A DNA stretch of 39,697 nucleotides, counting the filler, from Acidimicrobiia bacterium (GTDB lineage Bacteria; Actinomycetota; Acidimicrobiia; Spongiisociales; SHLN01), in assembly GCA_041619515.1 (NCBI GenBank). It is 13 parts of 13 records of this genome, joined end to end, with 100 filler letters (N's around TTAATTAATTAA, not from the genome) between each part and the next. Parts side by side here need not be neighbours in the genome. Positions count along the whole stretch, not along the records: positions 22,066 to 25,247 come from JBFKDW010000138.1; 12 more parts are not named here. One strand, written 5' to 3'. Shown piece by piece: positions 22,066-35,832 of this stretch. The stretch's first letter is position 1; every line of letters begins with the position of its first letter. The notes beneath the pieces are model-generated. The model saw nothing but the letters and a program-made list of their open reading frames with translations. It searched no databases and was not told the DNA's origin. The translations under genes and the position numbers were made by a program.

Positions 22066-22230
22066 CCGATCCTGGGACTCCGCCCGGCCCCCACATCCGT
22101 CACAGCTCACCGCAGCGGTGAGGGTCTCGATCCGGATGATGACCTCGCCGGCGTCTTCGGTCACCTCCAACACCCGGAATCCGTCCAAGCCGAGCAGCGC
22201 CTCCGCCAACCCGATACCGTGATCGCTCAC
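22066..22230 (-). CDS. ISL3-family transposase, N-terminal fragment running into the gap
   Basis: AEALLGLDGFRVLEV...IRIET...CDGCG (zf-ISL3 start); SD GGAG upstream. Confidence 0.85.
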
Positions 22231-22320
22231 CAGGGGTCTCCTGTCCGTCGAGCCGTTGAACAGCCCGAAGGATGGCGAGGCCCCTGGCCTCAACCGACGA
22301 TTGGCGGCGCTTCGGATATG

Positions 22321-23795
22321 AGCTCGCATGGCCGCTCTGTTGCGGCCATTGATGCGCGATGGAATGCTTGTGGTGTTGCCCGGGGCGTGGTCGCCGTCCC
22401 CTCTGTGAGCGTGAGAGCTCGGAATTAGCTTGGTGCGGGGGCCGGGGGATCGATGAGTGTCGCTGCGAGCGCGAACCCCAGTATCCGTGTGTCGTGTAGG
22501 TCCCTCCCTCGGGCGACGTAGACGTCGGAGGAGGAGGTGCCAGTGGAGACAATCAAGGACCGGGTAGCGGGGCTGGATGTGCATCGTGATCGGGTTGTGG
22601 CGTGTGCTCGGATCGTGGAGGGCACGCGGGTGAGGACGGTGAAGGAGTCGTTCTCGACCATGCGGGCAGGCGTGACCGAGCTGGGTGAGTGGCTCGACAG
22701 CCTCGGGGTGACGTTGGCCGTGCTGGAGTCCACTGGGGTGTATTGGAAGCCGGTGTATTACGGGTTGGAGCACCGCGTCGCCGAGCTGTGGCTGGTGAAC
22801 GCCATGCATGTGAAGCGGGTCCCGGGCCGCAAGACGGATGTCTCCGACGCCGAGTGGCTGGCGGATGTGGCCGCCCACGGGATGGTCCGGGCAAGCTTCG
22901 TCCCGCCACCTCCGATTCGGGAACTGCGGGAGCTGACGCGCTATCGCAAGACCCAGGTCGACGCCCGCACCCGGGAAATCCAACGCCTCGAGAAGGTGCT
23001 GCAGGACGCCGGCATCAAGCTGAGTTCGGTGGCATCAGGAACCTGGTCGAAGTCAGCACAAGCCATGATCGAGGCGATGATCGCCGGTGAACGCGACCCG
23101 GAGGTCCTCGCCGAGTTGTCGCTGAGCCGGATGCGGTCCAAGAAGCCAGCTTTGACGGAGGCGCTCGTCGGAGACTTCGGCGCTCACCACGGTGTCGTCG
23201 CTCGACAGATCATCGACCACATCGCGTTCCTCGACTCCTCGATCGATACCCTCACCGACCAGATCACCAAACGGATGGTTCCATTCGAGGGCGCCATCAC
23301 CCTGTTGTGCCAGATCCCCGGGTGGGGTCGCAGGACGGCGGAAGTGTTCGTCGCCGAGACCGGCGGGGACATGACTGTGTTCCCGACGCCAGCGCAGCTG
23401 GCATCCTGGTCGGGGATGGCCCCGGGTACGCACGAGTCAGCCGGGAAACGCCGACCCGCCGCGTCGATCCGGGGGAACCGCTGGCTTGGCCGGGCGCTGA
23501 TTGAAGCTGCCCGGGCTGCGGCGCGAACCAAGGGCACCTACCTGGCCGCGCAGTATCGCCGTATCGCGGCCCGACGCGGACCGAACCGGGCGTCCGTTGC
23601 GGTCGCACACACGATGGTCGTGTCCGCCTGGCACATGCTCACCACAGGTGAGACCTATCGAGAGCTCGGCGCCGACTACTTCACGCAGCGTCACGACCCG
23701 GAGCGCCGTGCCCGCCACCTCACCAACCAACTCCGACAACTCGGATACGAGGTCACCGTCACCCAAGCCGCGTGATAGAGGCATTCCACCCCAGC
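22321..23795 (+). mobile_element. IS110-family element with ~215-nt non-coding left end
   Basis: Bounded by AGC at 22321-22323 and 23793-23795. Right end only ~20 nt after the stop. TGGAATGC (22360-22367) / GCATTCCA (23781-23788) inverted repeat. Confidence 0.8.
22537..23775 (+). CDS. IS110-family DEDD recombinase (transposase)
   Basis: GLDVH, LESTG, KTDVSDA (DEDD), LRELTRYR, IPGWG, HESAG (Tnp Ser), VAVAH. Intact; strong SD GGAGGAGG (start 22537 or 22543). Confidence 0.97.
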   Translation: MPVETIKDRVAGLDVHRDRVVACARIVEGTRVRTVKESFSTMRAGVTELGEWLDSLGVTLAVLESTGVYWKPVYYGLEHRVAELWLVNAMHVKRVPGRKTDVSDAEWLADVAAHGMVRASFVPPPPIRELRELTRYRKTQVDARTREIQRLEKVLQDAGIKLSSVASGTWSKSAQAMIEAMIAGERDPEVLAELSLSRMRSKKPALTEALVGDFGAHHGVVARQIIDHIAFLDSSIDTLTDQITKRMVPFEGAITLLCQIPGWGRRTAEVFVAETGGDMTVFPTPAQLASWSGMAPGTHESAGKRRPAASIRGNRWLGRALIEAARAAARTKGTYLAAQYRRIAARRGPNRASVAVAHTMVVSAWHMLTTGETYRELGADYFTQRHDPERRARHLTNQLRQLGYEVTVTQAA

Positions 23796-23875
23796 GGGGT
23801 GTAGGGGTCCGCGGCGGGTAACAGGGGCCCTGCCAAGCTGGCGGTGTTCTACGCCGTCGAGCTCGGAGGACCCCT

Positions 23876-25180
23876 GTGGAGACGAACCCTATCCGCGTGT
23901 GTGAGCTGCTGGTGGGACTCCCGGACGTGAACGTGTTGGGTGTCGTCGACGACGACGGCGGGCCGCTGGGGGTCCATGTCGAGTGCCGGGTGGAGCGGCC
24001 GGCGTGTGCGGGGTGTGGGACGACGGCGCGGGTGAAGGATCGGCCCCGGATCGGGTTGGTGGACCTGCCGGCGTTCGGGCGACCCACCCGGTTGTGGTGG
24101 CATAAGCACCGCTGGTGGTGTGCGAACCCGGCGTGTGCGGTGGGGTCGTGGACCGGGGAGGATCGCCGCATTGCGGCGCCCCGGCTGGGGCTGACGGACC
24201 GGGCGGGACGGTGGGTCACCTACCAGGTGGGCAAGCTGGGCCGCAGCGTGGCGGAGGTGGCTCGGGAGTTGGGGTGTGACTGGCACACGGTCAACGACAC
24301 GGTGCTGGCCTACGGCGAAGCGCTCGTGGACGACGACCCGGGCCGCATCGGTGCCGTTGACGCCTTGGGTCTCGACGAGACATTGTTCTTCCGTAAGGGC
24401 CGGTGGCGGACCCAGCAGTGGGCTACCTCGATCGTCGATGTCGCCGCCCCCGGCGGTGCTCGCCTGCTGGATGTGGTGGCGGGCCGCAGCGCCACCGGCC
24501 CGTCGGAGTGGCTGGAGGCCCGCCCCGCCGAGTGGCGGAACCGGGTCCGTTACGGAGTGTTGGACCTGTCCGGCCCGTACCGCAAGGTGTTCGACGACAC
24601 CCTGGATCATGTCACCCAGGTCGCCGATCCGTTTCATCTGGTGCGGCTGGCCAACACCAAGCTCGATGAGTGCCGTCGCCGGGTTCAGAACGAGACGATG
24701 GGACATCGCGGCCGCAAGACCGATCCGCTGTATCGGGCTCGGCGGCTGTTGACCAAGGCCCACGAACGCCTCGACGACCGCGGCGAGCATCGTCTCATGG
24801 GCCTGTTGCGGGCTGGCGATCCCCGCGGTGAGGTGCGGATGGCGTGGCACGCCAAAGAAGTCATCCGGAGCATCTATGCGATCGACGATGCTGACCTGGC
24901 CGGCGACTTCGTCGCCCAACTCGCCGACGACCTCCAAGACGACTCCTGCCCCCCCGAAGTGCAGTCGCTTGGTCGTACCCTGCGGCGCTGGCTCAACCAG
25001 ATCGTCGCCTGGCACCAGGCCCGGGTCACCAACGGCCCCACCGAAGCGATCAACAACCTCGTCAAGCGCATCAAGCGGATCGGGTTCGGGTTTCGCCGAC
25101 ACCGCAACTACCGGATCCGGGCGCTGCTCTACGCCGGAAGACCCAACTGGGACCTACTCGCCACCATCACACCCCGCTGA
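23876..25180 (+). CDS. ISL3-family transposase
   Basis: CAGC...WWCANPAC zinc finger, HTH, GLDET, LDLS, ADPFHLV, TNGPTEAINNLVKRIKRIGFGF. Confidence 0.97.
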   Translation: METNPIRVCELLVGLPDVNVLGVVDDDGGPLGVHVECRVERPACAGCGTTARVKDRPRIGLVDLPAFGRPTRLWWHKHRWWCANPACAVGSWTGEDRRIAAPRLGLTDRAGRWVTYQVGKLGRSVAEVARELGCDWHTVNDTVLAYGEALVDDDPGRIGAVDALGLDETLFFRKGRWRTQQWATSIVDVAAPGGARLLDVVAGRSATGPSEWLEARPAEWRNRVRYGVLDLSGPYRKVFDDTLDHVTQVADPFHLVRLANTKLDECRRRVQNETMGHRGRKTDPLYRARRLLTKAHERLDDRGEHRLMGLLRAGDPRGEVRMAWHAKEVIRSIYAIDDADLAGDFVAQLADDLQDDSCPPEVQSLGRTLRRWLNQIVAWHQARVTNGPTEAINNLVKRIKRIGFGFRRHRNYRIRALLYAGRPNWDLLATITPR

Positions 25181-25347
25181 AATCCGATGAGCCACTTATG
25201 GCCGCCGACCCCCGCCCGCGTAGTTAGCCGCCTCGGAGCTAACAGTCNNNNNNNNNNNNNNNNNNNNNNNNNNNNNNNNNNNNNNNNNNNNTTAATTAAT
25301 TAANNNNNNNNNNNNNNNNNNNNNNNNNNNNNNNNNNNNNNNNNNNN

Positions 25348-30851: not shown

Positions 30852-31017
30852 CNNNNNNNNNNNNNNNNNNNNNNNNNNNNNNNNNNNNNNNNNNNNTTAA
30901 TTAATTAANNNNNNNNNNNNNNNNNNNNNNNNNNNNNNNNNNNNNNNNNNNNGATCTCGGGTCCACCCTCCCGGCAAGTGCGTGCCACCCCTGTCGTCTG
31001 AGCGAGGAGGGATGGCG

Positions 31018-31230
31018 ATGTCCATCGTAGGAAGCAACCCCGATGCGGTGGTTGGAGGTGTCGACACCCACGCCGACGTGCACGTCGCCGCAGCGGTGAA
31101 CCACGTCGGCGGCGTGGTGGGATTGGAGGCGTTCCCGACTACTCGAACTGGCTACCGCCAGTTGGTGTCGTGGCTGCGGTCGCATGGCGAGCTGATGCTG
31201 GTTGGGGTAGAGGGCACCGGCTCCTGTGGC
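31018..31230 (+). pseudogene. Truncated IS110-family transposase (N-terminal DEDD part only)
   Basis: GGVDTHADVHVAA...FPTTRTGY...VGVEGTGS, after which homology is lost. An IS110-right-end-like TTGACATCCCTACGAGATTC follows at 31331-31350. Confidence 0.8.
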
Positions 31231-31544
31231 TCATCCCTGTCGTGTCCACCCAAGCCCACCCCGGAAGCCAAGCCGGCGAATCCCGTCCGGCCGACCCAGC
31301 ACGCCCACAAACCCACCTCCGAGAAACCACTTGACATCCCTACGAGATTCAGACTGCACGGGCTTGCACTCAAGCAAGGCGCGGTGGCGTCGCGCTCCGA
31401 ACGCGCGGCGACGCGGCGCGGCCGATCAGGTTGCAAGGGAGCGCGCGTGAAGTGATGGGATGAACGGGCGGGGCCTCCCCGCTCATCGGTGACCCGGCAA
31501 CATCCGGGTTGCTCATCTCACCAGTGTGAGAAAGGAGGCCCGAG

Positions 31545-32563
31545 ATGAGAGCTTACGTGGGTGTGGATTTGCATCGCCGCCGGTCGGTGGTGGTGTGCAT
31601 CGATGAGGACGGGGAGCGTCGGTGGTGGCGGCGGATTGACAACACGGCGGCGGAGTTGGCGGGAGCGGTCGCGGCGGCCGGTCCGGATCCGGAGGTGGTC
31701 CTGGAGGCGACGTTCGGCTGGTACTGGGCGGCGGATGTGATCGCCGAGGCGGGTGGCCGGGTGCATCTGGCGCATCCGTTGGGGATCAAGGGCTTCGAGA
31801 ACCGGCGGGTGAAGAACGACCTGCGGGACGCCACGCTGTTGGCGGACTTGCTGCGGATGGGGAGGCTGCCGGAGTCGTGGATCCCGCCGCATTCAATCCG
31901 GGAGCTGCGGGAGTTGGTGCGGTACCGGCACAAGCTGGGGCAACTGCGGTCGGGGTTGAAGTCCCAGATCCATGGCGTGTTGGGCAAGGAGGCGTGATCC
32001 CGCCGCTCAAGCACCTGTGGGGCCCAGGCGGGTTCGCGTTCCTCAACGAGGTCGAGTTGGGGGAGGCGTATACGGTGCGGATCGAGTCGCTGCGGGACCT
32101 GATCGAGGTCTACGACCGTGAGATCACCGAAGTGGATCGGTTGGTCCATTCCAAGTTGCGCAACGACGCCGGCTACCGGGCGATTCAGCAGCTCACCGGC
32201 GTGGGCAGGGTGTTCGCTGGGGTGTTCTGCGCCGAGATCGGCGACGTCACCCGCTTCTCCCACGCCAACAAGCTGTGCTGCTGGGCGGGGCTGACCCCGC
32301 GGCTGCGGGAGTCGGACACCAAGACCAGGCAAGGCGCCATCACCAAACAGGGCTCCAAGCTCGTGCGGTGGGCCGCGATCGAAGCGGTCGCCCGTTACCG
32401 GGGCGGCGTCCCGATCCGAGACACCTACCGGCGAGTGGCGGAGCGGCGCGGGGTCAACCGGGCCAAGGTGGCCGCCGCCCGCAAGCTCCTGACCTTGGTG
32501 TTCTACGGACTCCGAGACGGCGAGATCCGCTGCCTCGCCCCCACCGAGGAGGCGGCAGCGTGA
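31545..32563 (+). pseudogene. IS110 recombinase with a single frameshift near 31990
   Basis: GVDLH/LEAT/KNDLRDA in one frame up to LGKE; continues GVIPPL...LRESD...AAARKLL in another frame, as if one G is missing from GAGG(G)C. Confidence 0.9.
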
Positions 32564-32567
32564 GGGT

Positions 32568-32725
32568 CGGGCACGGTCCGGCTGCGAGCTCGACGAACGA
32601 CATGACCCCCACTATCGGCGGCGGGTCGACGTAAGTGATCGAGCCCAGCCCGGCCGTGGCCGCACCGCTTCATGCCCACCACCCTGTCGTGCGTGGCGAA
32701 GGGATGACCAGGCGACCGACCCCTC
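32568..32725 (+). ncRNA. Candidate bridge/seek RNA in the IS110 right end
   Basis: Stem 32568-32584 / 32646-32662 encloses an internal loop, followed by a second loop. Same layout as 33700-33858 with compensatory changes. Ends approximate. Confidence 0.65.
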
Positions 32726-33006
32726 GGCTCGCCGCACCCCACTTCGGGGTCCCTGAACCAGCCAACCCGTACCCCATCGCCTCTCGAGGAGAACCCGCCA
32801 CCAACTGACATCCCACCCGATAGATCAGACACGGCCGGTCGGCCCCGGTCGTGATTCGCCGCGTCCTCACCAACCCGAAGACGCGAAAACCTCGCCTAAT
32901 CGCCCCTTGACAAACCGGACCCGTTCAGGGAAGCCGTGATGGGCGGTTCGCTGCTCCGCTCGTTGTGGCGCATAGTGGATGATCTGCGTGTTCGTTCGGT
33001 GGGTAA

Positions 33007-33186
33007 CGGTCGCCGACCGGGCCGTACTCGGGCCGGAGGGGCAAGCCCGCGGATCTGGCGATCGCCGGAGCGGCAGAAGCCGCCGGGTTCTCCGTGCTCC
33101 ATTACGACAGCGATTGCGTCCGCATCACCGCCGTGATCAACCCACCCAACTCGGCTCGGGGGGATGGCGCCGACGCAGTACGCTGA
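33007..33186 (+). pseudogene. Degenerate VapC/PIN toxin remnant
   Basis: KPADLAIAGAAEAAGFSVLHYDSDCVRI matches the VapC C-terminal motif. In-frame stop at 33004 and no start codon. Confidence 0.6.
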
Positions 33187-33196
33187 GGCAGGAACC

Positions 33197-33406
33197 TCAG
33201 ACCGCGTACGACACGAGAATGGCGACCGTCACGAGGATGATCACGGCTATGAACGCGATCTCACTCGTACGATCCCGACGGCCACTCAACTGGTAGGCGA
33301 GGAAGATCCACAGCGCTGCGAACTGGCTGACGAAGTCCAGTTCCACCTCGAGCACGTTCTTCGCCACAACCGCAGCGACGAGCAGACACGCTGCGGCGAC
33401 GAGCGC
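33197..33406 (-). CDS. Small membrane protein (5' partial)
   Basis: Open from the gap with three hydrophobic segments (ALVAAACLLVAAVVA...FAALWIFLAY...IAFIAVIILVTVAILVSYAV). Confidence 0.6.
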   Translation of the reverse strand, partial: ALVAAACLLVAAVVAKNVLEVELDFVSQFAALWIFLAYQLSGRRDRTSEIAFIAVIILVTVAILVSYAV

Positions 33407-33699
33407 GANNNNNNNNNNNNNNNNNNNNNNNNNNNNNNNNNNNNNNNNNNNNTTAATTAATTAANNNNNNNNNNNNNNNNNNNNNNNNNNNNNNNNNNNN
33501 NNNNNNNNATGATGCATTCCTGTAGGAGTGGTTCCTGTCAAGACCCAATTTCGGGTTTCTGGTAGGGCATCGGAGGGGATCGGGGCGCGCGCGGCTGGCT
33601 CCGAGCGGGACGCGGGAGCCGGCGACGATCAGGTTGTCAGGTCAGGTGCGGTGGGCTCTCCCTGGTTGGTTCGGACGTGGTGGTGTTCTCCGTGTGATG

Positions 33700-33858
33700 A
33701 GTTGGTTCAGGCTGACCGGGGTTCGGTGCCGTGCATTCCTTCGCCCCGCACGGGTGGTGGGGGCATGGAGTGATCCGGCCGTGACCGACAGGACACCATC
33801 AACTGTGCGACCGCCGGTGGGGTCAGCATCATTCGCGTGCCGCTGCCGGTCACGTCCG
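33700..33858 (-). ncRNA. Candidate bridge RNA with target- and donor-matching loops
   Basis: Stem 33843-33858 / 33776-33791 (15/16 pairs). Loop segments match the element's flanks and end: 33796-33807 = 34973-34984; 33826-33832 = rc of 33509-33515; 33732-33740 = 33513-33521. Ends approximate. Confidence 0.8.
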
Positions 33859-33863
33859 AAACC

Positions 33864-34871
33864 TCAGGCCGCTTGCTCGAGGCGGCGGATATGGTGATCC
33901 CGCAGGCCGTAGAACACCAAGGTGAGCATCTTGCGGGCGATGGCCACCCGGGCGATCTTGCGGCCCCGTCGTTCGGCGATCCGTTGGAAGTCGGCGGCGT
34001 AGATGTGGTCACCCCTGGCCCGCATGGCGGCCTCGACGGCAGCCCACCGCAGGAGACGGGATCCCTGCTTGGTGATGTGGCCCCGCACCACGGTGGTGTC
34101 CGATTCCCGGTGGCTGGGTGTCAGCCCAGCCCACGAGCTCAGCTGTTCAGGACGGTCGAAGCGGCTCACGTCGCCGATCTCGGCGATGAACACCGCCGCC
34201 AGCACCCTCCCGACACCGGGGATGCGGCGGATAGCGTCATAGCCGGGATGGCCCACCACGGTGCGGTGGATGTGCCGATCGAATGTCTCGATCTCGGCGT
34301 CGAGCGCCGCCACGGACCGCCGCAGCGAGTCGACCCGCAGCCGGTACGCCCCGGCGAGCTCGAGGTCATCGAGCATCTGGTTGCCGGAGACGCCGAACAG
34401 GTCGTTCATCGTGACCGACACCCCGAGCTTGGCCAACACCGAATGCACCTGCGCCTTGCACGACGTCCGATGCGACACCAGCTTGGCCCGGTACCGCACC
34501 AGCTCCCGCAGCTCCCTCGTCGCCGGCGGCGCGATCCACGCTTCCGGCAGCCGACCCAGCCGCAACAGATCGGCCAGGTCCCGGGCGTCGAGGCGGTCGT
34601 CTTTGCGACGCCGGTTCCCCCACGCCAGCCCAAGCGGGTGAGCGAGATGCACGTCGAAGCCTTCGGCCTGCAGCAAGTCGACGGCCCAGTACCAGCCGTA
34701 GGTCGCTTCCAACACGACCCGAGCTCGGGGACCCGCCTTCCTCACCTCGTCGATGAAGACCTCCGGGTCGTTGGCGATCCTGACCTCCGACACCACCTCC
34801 CCGGCGGCGTCCATCCGGACGATCACCGACCTGCGTCGATGCAGATCGATACCCACGTACGATTCGGCCAT
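33864..34871 (-). CDS. IS110-family DEDD recombinase (transposase)
   Basis: GIDLH, LEATYG, KDDRLDA, LRELVRYR, IPGVG, HRESD, VAIARKML; intact. Confidence 0.97.
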   Translation of the reverse strand: MAESYVGIDLHRRRSVIVRMDAAGEVVSEVRIANDPEVFIDEVRKAGPRARVVLEATYGWYWAVDLLQAEGFDVHLAHPLGLAWGNRRRKDDRLDARDLADLLRLGRLPEAWIAPPATRELRELVRYRAKLVSHRTSCKAQVHSVLAKLGVSVTMNDLFGVSGNQMLDDLELAGAYRLRVDSLRRSVAALDAEIETFDRHIHRTVVGHPGYDAIRRIPGVGRVLAAVFIAEIGDVSRFDRPEQLSSWAGLTPSHRESDTTVVRGHITKQGSRLLRWAAVEAAMRARGDHIYAADFQRIAERRGRKIARVAIARKMLTLVFYGLRDHHIRRLEQAA

Positions 34872-35010
34872 GAGGGGCCTCCCTTCTCGGCGTCCCCCGT
34901 GGAGACGCCTCGGACAGTGACAACCGAAGTGTTACTTCGGATCGTCGAGAGCGGGGGCCCCGCTCCTACATCCCATCAACTGTGTGCTGCAGGAACGAGG
35001 TGGAGGCGCG

Positions 35011-35562
35011 ATGGCGTTGGACCGCGCAAAGCTCGCCAACATCGACAGGCGGCTTCTTGCCGACCTGGACCGCGAAGTCGACTGGCAGTTGGTCAAGGTG
35101 CCGGCGTCCTCCGCCACCTGGTCGACGTGGAAACGCTATTGCGATGTCGTCGGGCTGTCTATGGGCCGGGCGATCGCGGCGCTCATAGACCTCGAGTTGA
35201 CTTCCGTGGTCGATGTTGATGTCGACGCCCGGGCGGCGGTGATCACCGAACGATATCGCGAACTCGACCTACGTGACCAAGTGCTTGCCGAGCGAGAGCG
35301 AGAGCTACAGCGTCGTGAGAAGCGTCTCCGCGTTCGCCGCCGGCCGACGAAGGTGGAGCTAGAGCGGATGGCGGAGCAGATCGAACCGCCCGACCCAGGC
35401 CCAGCCGCCCAGCACGCACCCGAGATACTCGAACCCTCCGTCTTCGGTGGCGTCGGGAGGAACGAGACGTGCCCGTGCGGCTCGGGCCTGAAGTTCAAGA
35501 AGTGTCACCTCCCGGTGTTGGAGGGCCGTAGGGACGGGCCGGGCGAGCCGTCGAGCGGTTGA
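35011..35562 (+). CDS. SEC-C motif protein with coiled coil and possible ribbon-helix-helix N-terminus
   Basis: C-terminal VGRNETCPCGSGLKFKKCH; central E/R-rich coiled coil; SD GGAGG before ATG 35011. Confidence 0.8.
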   Translation: MALDRAKLANIDRRLLADLDREVDWQLVKVPASSATWSTWKRYCDVVGLSMGRAIAALIDLELTSVVDVDVDARAAVITERYRELDLRDQVLAERERELQRREKRLRVRRRPTKVELERMAEQIEPPDPGPAAQHAPEILEPSVFGGVGRNETCPCGSGLKFKKCHLPVLEGRRDGPGEPSSG

Positions 35563-35832
35563 GGTGCCTGAGCCCGATTCGCGCTGATCGGCGAATGCGG
35601 CGCAGCCCTGGCAGATTGTGACCACGGCGTCGGCTTGTAGCGGCGTTGACCGACTGGCGACTAGCTGCTCCGTAGAGCCGATGCCCGAGTGCGCCGAGCC
35701 CTTCAAAAACGTCACTCCTGATTGATACGGTGNNNNNNNNNNNNNNNNNNNNNNNNNNNNNNNNNNNNNNNNNNNNTTAATTAATTAANNNNNNNNNNNN
35801 NNNNNNNNNNNNNNNNNNNNNNNNNNNNNNNN

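Follow-up and report, generated by a model that had tools for sequence, protein, structure and literature searches.

An IS110-family element apparently programmed against ISL3 terminal repeats, and a putative folded donor for its predicted bridge RNA

The window analysed here is a 39,697-nucleotide (nt) stretch from the Acidimicrobiia bacterium assembly GCA_041619515.1, in which short contigs are strung together with N-linkers; the source assembly (G000) amounts to 3.1 Mb in 146 contigs with 66% GC. One contig (C138, window 22066-25247, 3,182 bp) is nearly all mobile DNA and carries an IS110-family insertion sequence inside the left terminal inverted repeat (TIR) of an ISL3-family element. Comparison with related loci makes us highly confident that the conserved inner part of the ISL3 TIR is what this IS110 is programmed to hit, with entry at nt 16-17 of either TIR and its left end outward. 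The guides of its predicted bridge RNA lead us to favour, with distinctly less assurance, a whole account in which such an ISL3-TIR-programmed element would use a folded single DNA strand as its donor.

Insertion at a fixed base of the ISL3 terminal repeat

The first-pass annotation of this DNA had placed an IS110 within the left TIR of an ISL3 element. Once 22324-23795 is excised, the flanks join into a 25-mer that shares 21 of its 25 bases with the right end (25169-25193) read in reverse complement, and the repeat rebuilt in this way was recovered in uninterrupted ISL3 relatives, one base off in L212 (91% DNA identity over 328 nt) and two bases off in L197. The empty left repeat also exists as DNA: a Logan contig of run X4 joins position 22320 to 23793, the short side of this joint being 21 letters only, and X4 may be the source sample. 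The AGC read by the annotation as the repeat is indeed shared at the window junctions, but only its first two bases, AG, are the core, and the third merely happens to be common to both sides; a 3-nt core was ruled out by L113, in which the third base differs between the two junctions. AG occurs at the left junction (22321-22322, plus strand; CT on the strand that the bridge RNA treats as top) and again at 23793-23794, so that the element spans 22323-23794 on the plus strand (1,472 bp including one core). It separates the outer 15 nt of the left TIR (22306-22320, plus strand), which form the left half of its target, from the inner part (23795-23805, plus strand), which forms the right half.

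For comparison, 177 loci were examined (the best 80 of 356 metagenome loci, the best 80 of 146 genome loci, and the class-genome loci). Fourteen of them showed at least 70% amino acid (aa) identity; with L030, a 42-residue fragment, dropped, 13 usable loci (at least 71% aa identity) form one clade, supported by a Shimodaira-Hasegawa-like approximate likelihood ratio test (SH-aLRT) value of 100 in a quick tree, in which the L119 row is mistranslated, and by a FastTree value of 100 in a tree that leaves out L119. In all 13, the left junction lies at nt 16-17 of an ISL3-type TIR, AG stands at this junction, and the IS110 left end points out of the ISL3, in one orientation. Since L031 and L118 share one left flank (943 nt), these loci represent 12 distinct sites; the two differ on the right side. 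The ISL3 transposase adjoins the IS110 in 10 loci, six interrupted at the left TIR and four at the right, and in L040, L041 and L116 only the repeat is visible, without an adjacent ISL3 transposase. The right junction, readable in 11 loci, runs on into TIR sequence in 10, and the 11 loci with both junctions carry AG at each end, without terminal inverted repeats or a long target duplication. The counts of TIR conservation depend in part on the search pattern itself and do not serve as independent evidence.

The same TIR base and orientation recur in left and right TIRs of ISL3s that are 38% to 100% identical. The IS110s of the window and L111 differ at 3 of 1,474 positions versus 6 of 143 for the ISL3 (Fisher p 3e-5), and L112 and L116 carry 100% identical IS110s in flanks that are 82% identical over 50 nt. 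Near-identical IS110s in more diverged ISL3s thus argue for separate insertions and not for one spreading composite. The ISL3s of L112, L113 and L117, once rebuilt, show perfect 8-bp duplications, consistent with the IS110 arriving after the ISL3. The IS110 right-end motif was absent from all 29 uninterrupted ISL3 relative loci, and the 13 loci gave no sign of an IS110-ISL3 composite that had moved together, which is not a measure of ISL3 mobility. The proposal of the first-pass annotation that this IS110 is programmed against ISL3 ends is therefore strengthened, both by the TIR base common to the 13 left junctions and by guide loops that co-vary with their targets. Its picture of the ISL3 as a multi-copy safe harbour in this genome found no support, as G000 contains one ISL3 transposase and a 55-codon fragment on the same contig. 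No other ISL3 transposase and no second DNA copy of either element was found in the assembly, in whose 146 contigs repeats may be unassembled; the only other IS110 proteins are distant (32-54% identity pieces) and correspond to two genes on the neighbouring short contigs C143 and C144 (window 30953-35732).

No clade member other than the window was found in 401 genomes of its class (best 64-70% DNA identity over parts), and the DNA search of 401 genomes of the family of G401 returned G401 alone. G401 holds two full ISL3 copies, of another variant, unoccupied by IS110. Among 22 loci of 59-66% aa identity (16 with a confident left core), the TIR was seen at none. Named relatives are mostly Acidimicrobiia and other Actinomycetota. 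L111, a 2.3-kb contig with different flanks, on which the IS110 is 99.8% and the ISL3 end around it 95.8% identical to the window, belongs to a record titled Gemmatimonadales, by recent cross-phylum transfer or misbinning.

A restriction of ISL3-end hits to this clade was considered and fell with the wider G401-family set, in which L254 and L256 lie at the same TIR register and L270 does so on the right junction only. A third IS110 lineage (60-61% aa identity) occupies the outer tip of the ISL3 TIR in the opposite orientation, with matching guides, at eight sites (L255, L258, L261 and L277-L281, in G797, G787, G407 and G443), six of which have the whole TIR motif and two of which adjoin an ISL3 transposase. 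As the three ISL3-targeting lineages lie on separate branches of a FastTree phylogeny, with no formal one-clade test, ISL3 ends have probably been adopted as an IS110 target three times, at two different positions.

Several further loci deserve mention. L256 lies inside a 681-bp ISL3-type miniature element; at L285 (G669:C10), such a 681-bp miniature element with a near-perfect 8-bp duplication is cut at TIR nt 16-17 by an IS110 of 61% identity. The L038 scaffold join presents two different right junctions, both ISL3-TIR-like, which implies at least two insertion sites in that sample. L268 (G691:C1:4637161-4640084) is a tandem pair of IS110 copies, the first lying 5 nt outside an ISL3 end. Further members of the wider IS110 subgroup occupy recurrent fixed sites that resemble coding regions or the ends of other mobile elements (L266, L267, L295 and L296; L262, L289 and L290; L184 and L151). 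In L037, the sequence to the left of the IS110 duplicates the element's left end at length in inverted orientation, probably an assembly or foldback artefact.

The predicted bridge RNA and its guides

A bridge RNA with target and donor loops within an outer stem was predicted by RNAalifold at 22377-22515 on the plus strand. Its fold over 21 elements contains 29 pairs, 12 of them with compensatory changes; Rfam gave no match for it. Guides were tested on 22 distinct elements, with L068, L066 and L182 removed for uncertain cores and loci without a left end unusable, and by permutation the matches of both target guides, the right donor guide and the target-loop handshake to their sites each reached p 5e-5.

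The left target guide (22396-22404, plus strand) would pair with the plus strand of TIR nt 16-22 and matches at 64 of 85 non-core positions, against 29.5 +/- 4.7 expected by chance. The right target guide (22422-22428), in the same sense as TIR nt 11-17, is followed by a handshake guide at 22429-22430 (together 22422-22430, plus strand). It matches at 86 of 110 positions versus 34.1 and follows the TIR variants even within the clade (27/40, p 0.005), and the 2-nt handshake guide matches left-end positions +1 and +2 at 43 of 44 positions versus 22.0. On the donor side, the right guide (22475-22481), in the same sense as the last 5 nt of the right end plus the core, is again followed by a handshake (together 22475-22483, plus strand); it scores 90/90 versus 81.0 +/- 1.3 and is perfect in 18 of 18 elements. 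The guides have the arrangement of IS621 (PMC11208158), except that the strand they read is the one opposite to the gene. For the RNA's 3' tail segment, a scan of the ends gave no convincing partner. In the relatives L054, L073, L252, L260 and L293, AA or TG cores replace AG, and in L054 and L073 the guides shift in step with the core, a natural core reprogramming.

The left donor guide (22449-22457, plus strand) behaves differently. The IS621 model places its match at the left terminus plus the core, and no such match was found in three element sets: 66/198 positions versus 67.6, 33/126 versus 32.6 in a first held-out set, and 15/63 versus 15.3 in a second. The guide ends in CT in only 1 of 24 elements. 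An unbiased scan of 3,164 window pairs placed 6 of the top 10, and 7 of the top 8, matches on one diagonal that joins the loop to an internal arm (22348-22356, plus strand). The arm lies about 25 nt inside the left terminus, between two inverted repeats, and the guide matches it in the same sense, without the core dinucleotide, at 7 of 9 positions in the window. On one side stands the left-end hairpin (stem 2, 22328-22349), a perfect 8-bp stem with a 6-nt loop that begins 5 nt past the core and whose length differs between relatives. On the other side, the arm lies shortly ahead of an inner 8-nt inverted repeat (22360-22367, plus strand), the left-end half of stem 1, which is complementary to 23781-23788 in the right end (23781-23794, plus strand: the 8-nt repeat, four C and the AG core). 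The two halves of stem 1 pair at 146 of 152 positions over 19 elements, versus a permutation mean of 132.5 (p 5e-5).

Across elements, the left donor guide equals the internal arm at 132 of 198 positions, against 91.6 +/- 5.6 by chance (p 5e-5), and slid registers score 39-75. The match is found in the clade alone (54/72, p 1e-4) and in the other elements alone (78/126, p 5e-5), and arm positions 3-9 co-vary by themselves (99/154 versus 68.2, p 5e-5). The first held-out set (45-55% aa identity), in which 122 loci gave 104 with an RNA hit, 42 parsed and 14 distinct elements, scored 87/126 versus 74.5 +/- 3.2 in a best-window test (p 7e-4), with reverse-complement and canonical controls at chance. 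In the second set, for which 16 of 32 loci were parsed and the register was fixed beforehand, seven new elements scored 48/63 versus 38.7 +/- 2.6 (p 5e-4). Finally, 11 non-overlapping element pairs offered 18 sites, at 14 of which guide and arm changed in concert and at 1 of which they disagreed. At the level of sequence comparison, the ends, the core and the target, the co-variation of the four guides and the handshake, and that of the outer stem can thus be regarded as established.

A folded single-strand donor and its alternatives

With an inner repeat complementary to the right end and a hairpin between, joining the ends creates an extended, interrupted inverted repeat whose bubble contains the core. 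Either strand of it is predicted to fold into a hairpin (z -1.1 to -6.0 across 21 elements; -4.0 and -4.5 in the window). Since both donor guides would pair with the bottom strand, one loop could bind both sites only if that strand is folded. We infer that the RNA is transcribed and pairs with DNA, and that the donor would be the genomic bottom strand around the joined ends, either after single-strand copy-out or in an extruded cruciform. In this long hairpin, the core would sit in a mismatched bubble (about 11 x 10 nt) between an 8-bp outer stem and an inner stem with its loop. One arm, bearing the true ends together with the core, would be read by the right donor guide and the handshake guide; the opposite arm, internal left-end sequence that faces the core, would be read by the left donor guide. 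A hairpin donor predicts just this division, with the handshake, on the transferred strand, directed to the true end and the left donor guide, on the other strand, to the internal arm. According to PMC11208158, the handshake guide reads the transferred strand, and its match to the true terminus is expected if that arm is transferred. Because arm and guide lack the core, a second homologous exchange would be unavailable and replication would have to complete insertion: one strand would be exchanged with the target, and replication or repair would finish the process, as at integron attC. After insertion, this same stem would draw the two ends of the element towards each other within one strand. 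For IS621 and CazIS110-1, copy-out of a single strand and insertion biased to the top strand have been described (10.64898/2026.08.31.748434; 10.1101/2025.10.25.684509). The interrupted ISL3 may also lose mobility, as the first-pass annotation proposed.

A number of observations weigh against this account. As regards targeting, the right junction of L041 leads into six non-TIR bases at the contig end, and L039 and L040 lack the right end altogether, the L039 deletion extending into the ISL3 right end. The permutation tests take no account of relatedness, and the left target guide shows no significant co-variation within the clade (21/25, p 0.2). In the window, the target guides agree with the occupied site at only 6 of 10 non-core positions, a fit equalled by 3,204 of the 316,864 AG sites of G000, so that guide pairing alone cannot explain the TIR preference; an extra determinant or strong selection is needed. 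A hairpin at the TIR target, considered as an ISPpu10-like structural gate, is weakly predicted (-0.3 to -3.0 kcal/mol). As regards the donor, the match between guide and arm is imperfect (about 7/9), and 7 of 24 elements fit the arm poorly or only after a 1-nt shift. In the first held-out set, 42 of 122 loci were parsed, with L181 mis-parsed and L176, L097 and L179 doubtful, and the paired test corrects for relatedness only in part, several of its 11 pairs (L001/L041, L031/L116 and L076/L034 among them) falling short of a strict sister relationship. In the predicted folds of minimum energy, some of the bubble is often paired. No circle junction was seen among the DNA contigs of four sequencing runs, which proves nothing either way; the joints found there were the empty site, an ISL3-internal deletion, and one IS110-to-ISL3 joint with 38 unrelated letters between.

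The targeting could be real and the donor an ordinary duplex read by the right donor guide alone, the left guide binding a separate internal duplex site, where its role might be to bend the end or keep it in place during excision, or to dampen transcription of the element itself. For IS621, recombination by half-match from a 5-bp right-donor motif has been reported (10.64898/2026.08.31.748434), and a right donor guide that is perfect in 18 of 18 elements, versus about 7/9 for the left, fits such a scheme. We nevertheless consider it unlikely, as it leaves unexplained the position of the matched segment, which a hairpin would set opposite the core, and the co-variation of the outer stem with the right end (146/152); in a duplex, moreover, both donor guides would lie on the same strand in the same direction, which is impossible for one loop at one site (PMC11208158). 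That the likeness of guide and arm has no function at all, being a relic of local duplication or the trace of a common RNA partner in an otherwise decayed left donor loop, appears improbable. Such a relic would account for the imperfect match between G-rich sequences, and the first two arm positions belong to stem 2 and are constrained anyway. Against this, positions 3-9 co-vary alone, within-pair changes are concordant 14:1, the signal lasts from 45% to 100% protein identity, beyond the lifetime of an unselected copy, and no complementary partner of comparable quality turned up when the ends were scanned.

The targeting itself could also be apparent only, arising from loose insertion with TIR survivors, from one ancient spreading IS110-ISL3 composite, or from an assembly chimera. 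The weak guides of the window, with their 3,204 equal sites, the short and repeat-rich contig without a target duplication, the two right junctions of the L038 scaffold, and the 943-nt left flank that L031 and L118 share while differing on the right are all compatible with it. This reading is largely refuted and very improbable: base and orientation are constant in left and right TIRs of ISL3s with 38% to 100% identity, the divergence of the IS110s does not follow that of the ISL3s, the right target guide follows the TIR variants in the clade (27/40, p 0.005), and survival alone would also keep other intergenic insertions, of which none was seen in 13. For the wider family, we lean slightly towards the view that a large subgroup of IS110s of about 400 aa (7,038 clusters at E <= 1e-100, tested on about 43 distinct elements of 45-100% identity) uses an RNA-read folded single-strand donor and that ISL3 TIRs were adopted at least three times, at two positions.

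The element, its host and related systems

The IS110 encodes a DEDD recombinase of 412 aa (22537-23775, plus strand; 410 aa from the GTG at 22543) with D14, E64, D101, D104 and S301. It scores above the NCBIfam cut-off (NF033542, 255 bits against 140) and combines, as in the IS110 family, a DEDD RuvC-like domain (PF01548) with a PF02371 domain carrying the catalytic serine; D101/D104 and S301 align to the IS621 motifs. Its RNA-bearing left end of 214 nt, right end of 19 nt and protein of 410-412 aa (315-455 aa being the accepted range) correspond to the IS110 group. IS1111-group elements are characterized by 11-13-bp sub-terminal repeats 7 and 3 nt from the ends and a downstream non-coding region; here the repeat is 8 nt long, its left copy lies 30-37 nt inside, and the RNA is upstream.

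The host encodes an intact ISL3 transposase of 434 aa (23876-25180, plus strand; D167, D230, E390) that scores above the NCBIfam cut-off (NF033550, 265 bits against 180), and with its DDE_Tnp_ISL3 transposase and GG-starting TIRs of about 25 nt it conforms to the ISL3 family. Its right TIR (25169-25193, minus strand) is unoccupied. To the left lies the 5' part of a second ISL3-family element (22066-22305, minus strand), consisting of the first 55 codons (22230-22066) and the upstream region and truncated by the contig end. Its own left TIR is gone, and the plus-strand ISL3 begins within the left non-coding region of this fragment, some 75 nt ahead of the start codon. This fragment gave no Pfam or NCBIfam ISL3 match and is 61-79% identical to the ISL3 N-termini of L031, L112, L113 and L118 (tblastn). 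The left 18-mer was considered as the left TIR of the minus-strand ISL3 and ruled out, since intact relatives of the plus-strand ISL3 carry it in plus orientation. Related contigs diverge from the window at 22302. No 8-bp target duplication surrounds the window ISL3, whose left flank is the start of the second, inverted ISL3; its two flanks hence come from rearrangement or from assembly across repeats. The 54 nt past the ISL3 (25194-25247) match nothing elsewhere in the genome and contain a short inverted repeat, with 6-mers that we take to be attC-core-like.

IS4321 and IS5075, of the IS1111 group, target Tn21-family TIRs, and IS1383 targets IS1384 repeats (PMC11208160). The window IS110 shares with them insertion at a fixed base and orientation in the terminal repeat of another element, and differs in targeting the ISL3 TIR. 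Its non-coding region is upstream of a 410-412-aa protein, whereas the IS1111 group usually has a downstream region and 330-350 aa (PMC11187229). Like that group, it has an inverted repeat a few bases inside the right end, and the first bases of this repeat (ATG) recur 7 nt from the left end; the full 8-nt partner, however, lies 30-37 nt inside the left end, past the hairpin, and not at 7 nt. ISEc21, an IS110-group element with a seekRNA, likewise has an upstream non-coding region and targets another insertion sequence family, but its target is a coding motif, the catalytic codon of IS3-family transposases, and not a TIR (PMC11187229). The top-strand match of ISEc21 lies 3' of the bottom-strand match, whereas the order in the window, relative to the gene, is reversed, as in IS1111 elements (PMC11187229). 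With IS621 and ISCro4 (PMC11208160, PMC11208158, PMC13626964; PDB 8wt6, 9t56), the element shares the DEDD and serine catalytic set, a long left end with a bridge RNA bearing target and donor loops, a 2-nt core that is CT on one strand, and a handshake guide matching donor positions 6-7, although its recombinase is distant from IS621 (phmmer E 3e-8). It departs from both in guides that read the strand opposite to the gene, in a left donor guide that has no core and finds its match in an internal arm and not at the terminus, and in joined ends that form a long interrupted inverted repeat. The closest named element in the plasmid collection, the IS110-like ISArsp3 of Glutamicibacter and Arthrobacter plasmids, is 49% identical in aa and too distant to be the same element.

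Integron attC sites and the attP of phage CTX offer a folded single strand as recombination site, where one strand exchange is finished by replication. They use tyrosine recombinases, with protein recognition of unpaired bases, whereas an RNA guide would read two arms in the window IS110; the likeness would be one of function.

We found neither an IS110 aimed at ISL3 ends nor a folded donor in the literature, as judged mostly from listings, with subscription papers, ISfinder, figures and supplements outside the search. The word ISL3 is absent from the three texts searched for it (PMC11208160, PMC11187229 and 10.64898/2026.08.14.744561), and hairpin, stem-loop and cruciform have no occurrence in PMC13626964. 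Hunting the ends of other elements is a known habit of the IS110 family, and the ISL3 TIR is a new target for it; the donor architecture appears to depart from the IS621 model. Targeting of ISL3 ends is by itself a modest addition, with evidence for repeated, convergent reprogramming onto the same repeat. The mode of IS110 excision, through single- or double-stranded intermediates, is disputed in papers of 2025-2026, and a natural subgroup whose donor guide needs a folded single strand would, if real, make the question of strandedness directly testable. The excised single strand or cruciform would be the sole substrate, which would enforce copy-out and one-strand insertion and provide built-in directionality. 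Such a donor would join RNA-guided recombination to attC-style hairpin substrates, would explain why IS621 rules fail to predict the donor guides of such elements, and could yield bridge recombinases able to use single-stranded donors and inefficient in the reverse direction.

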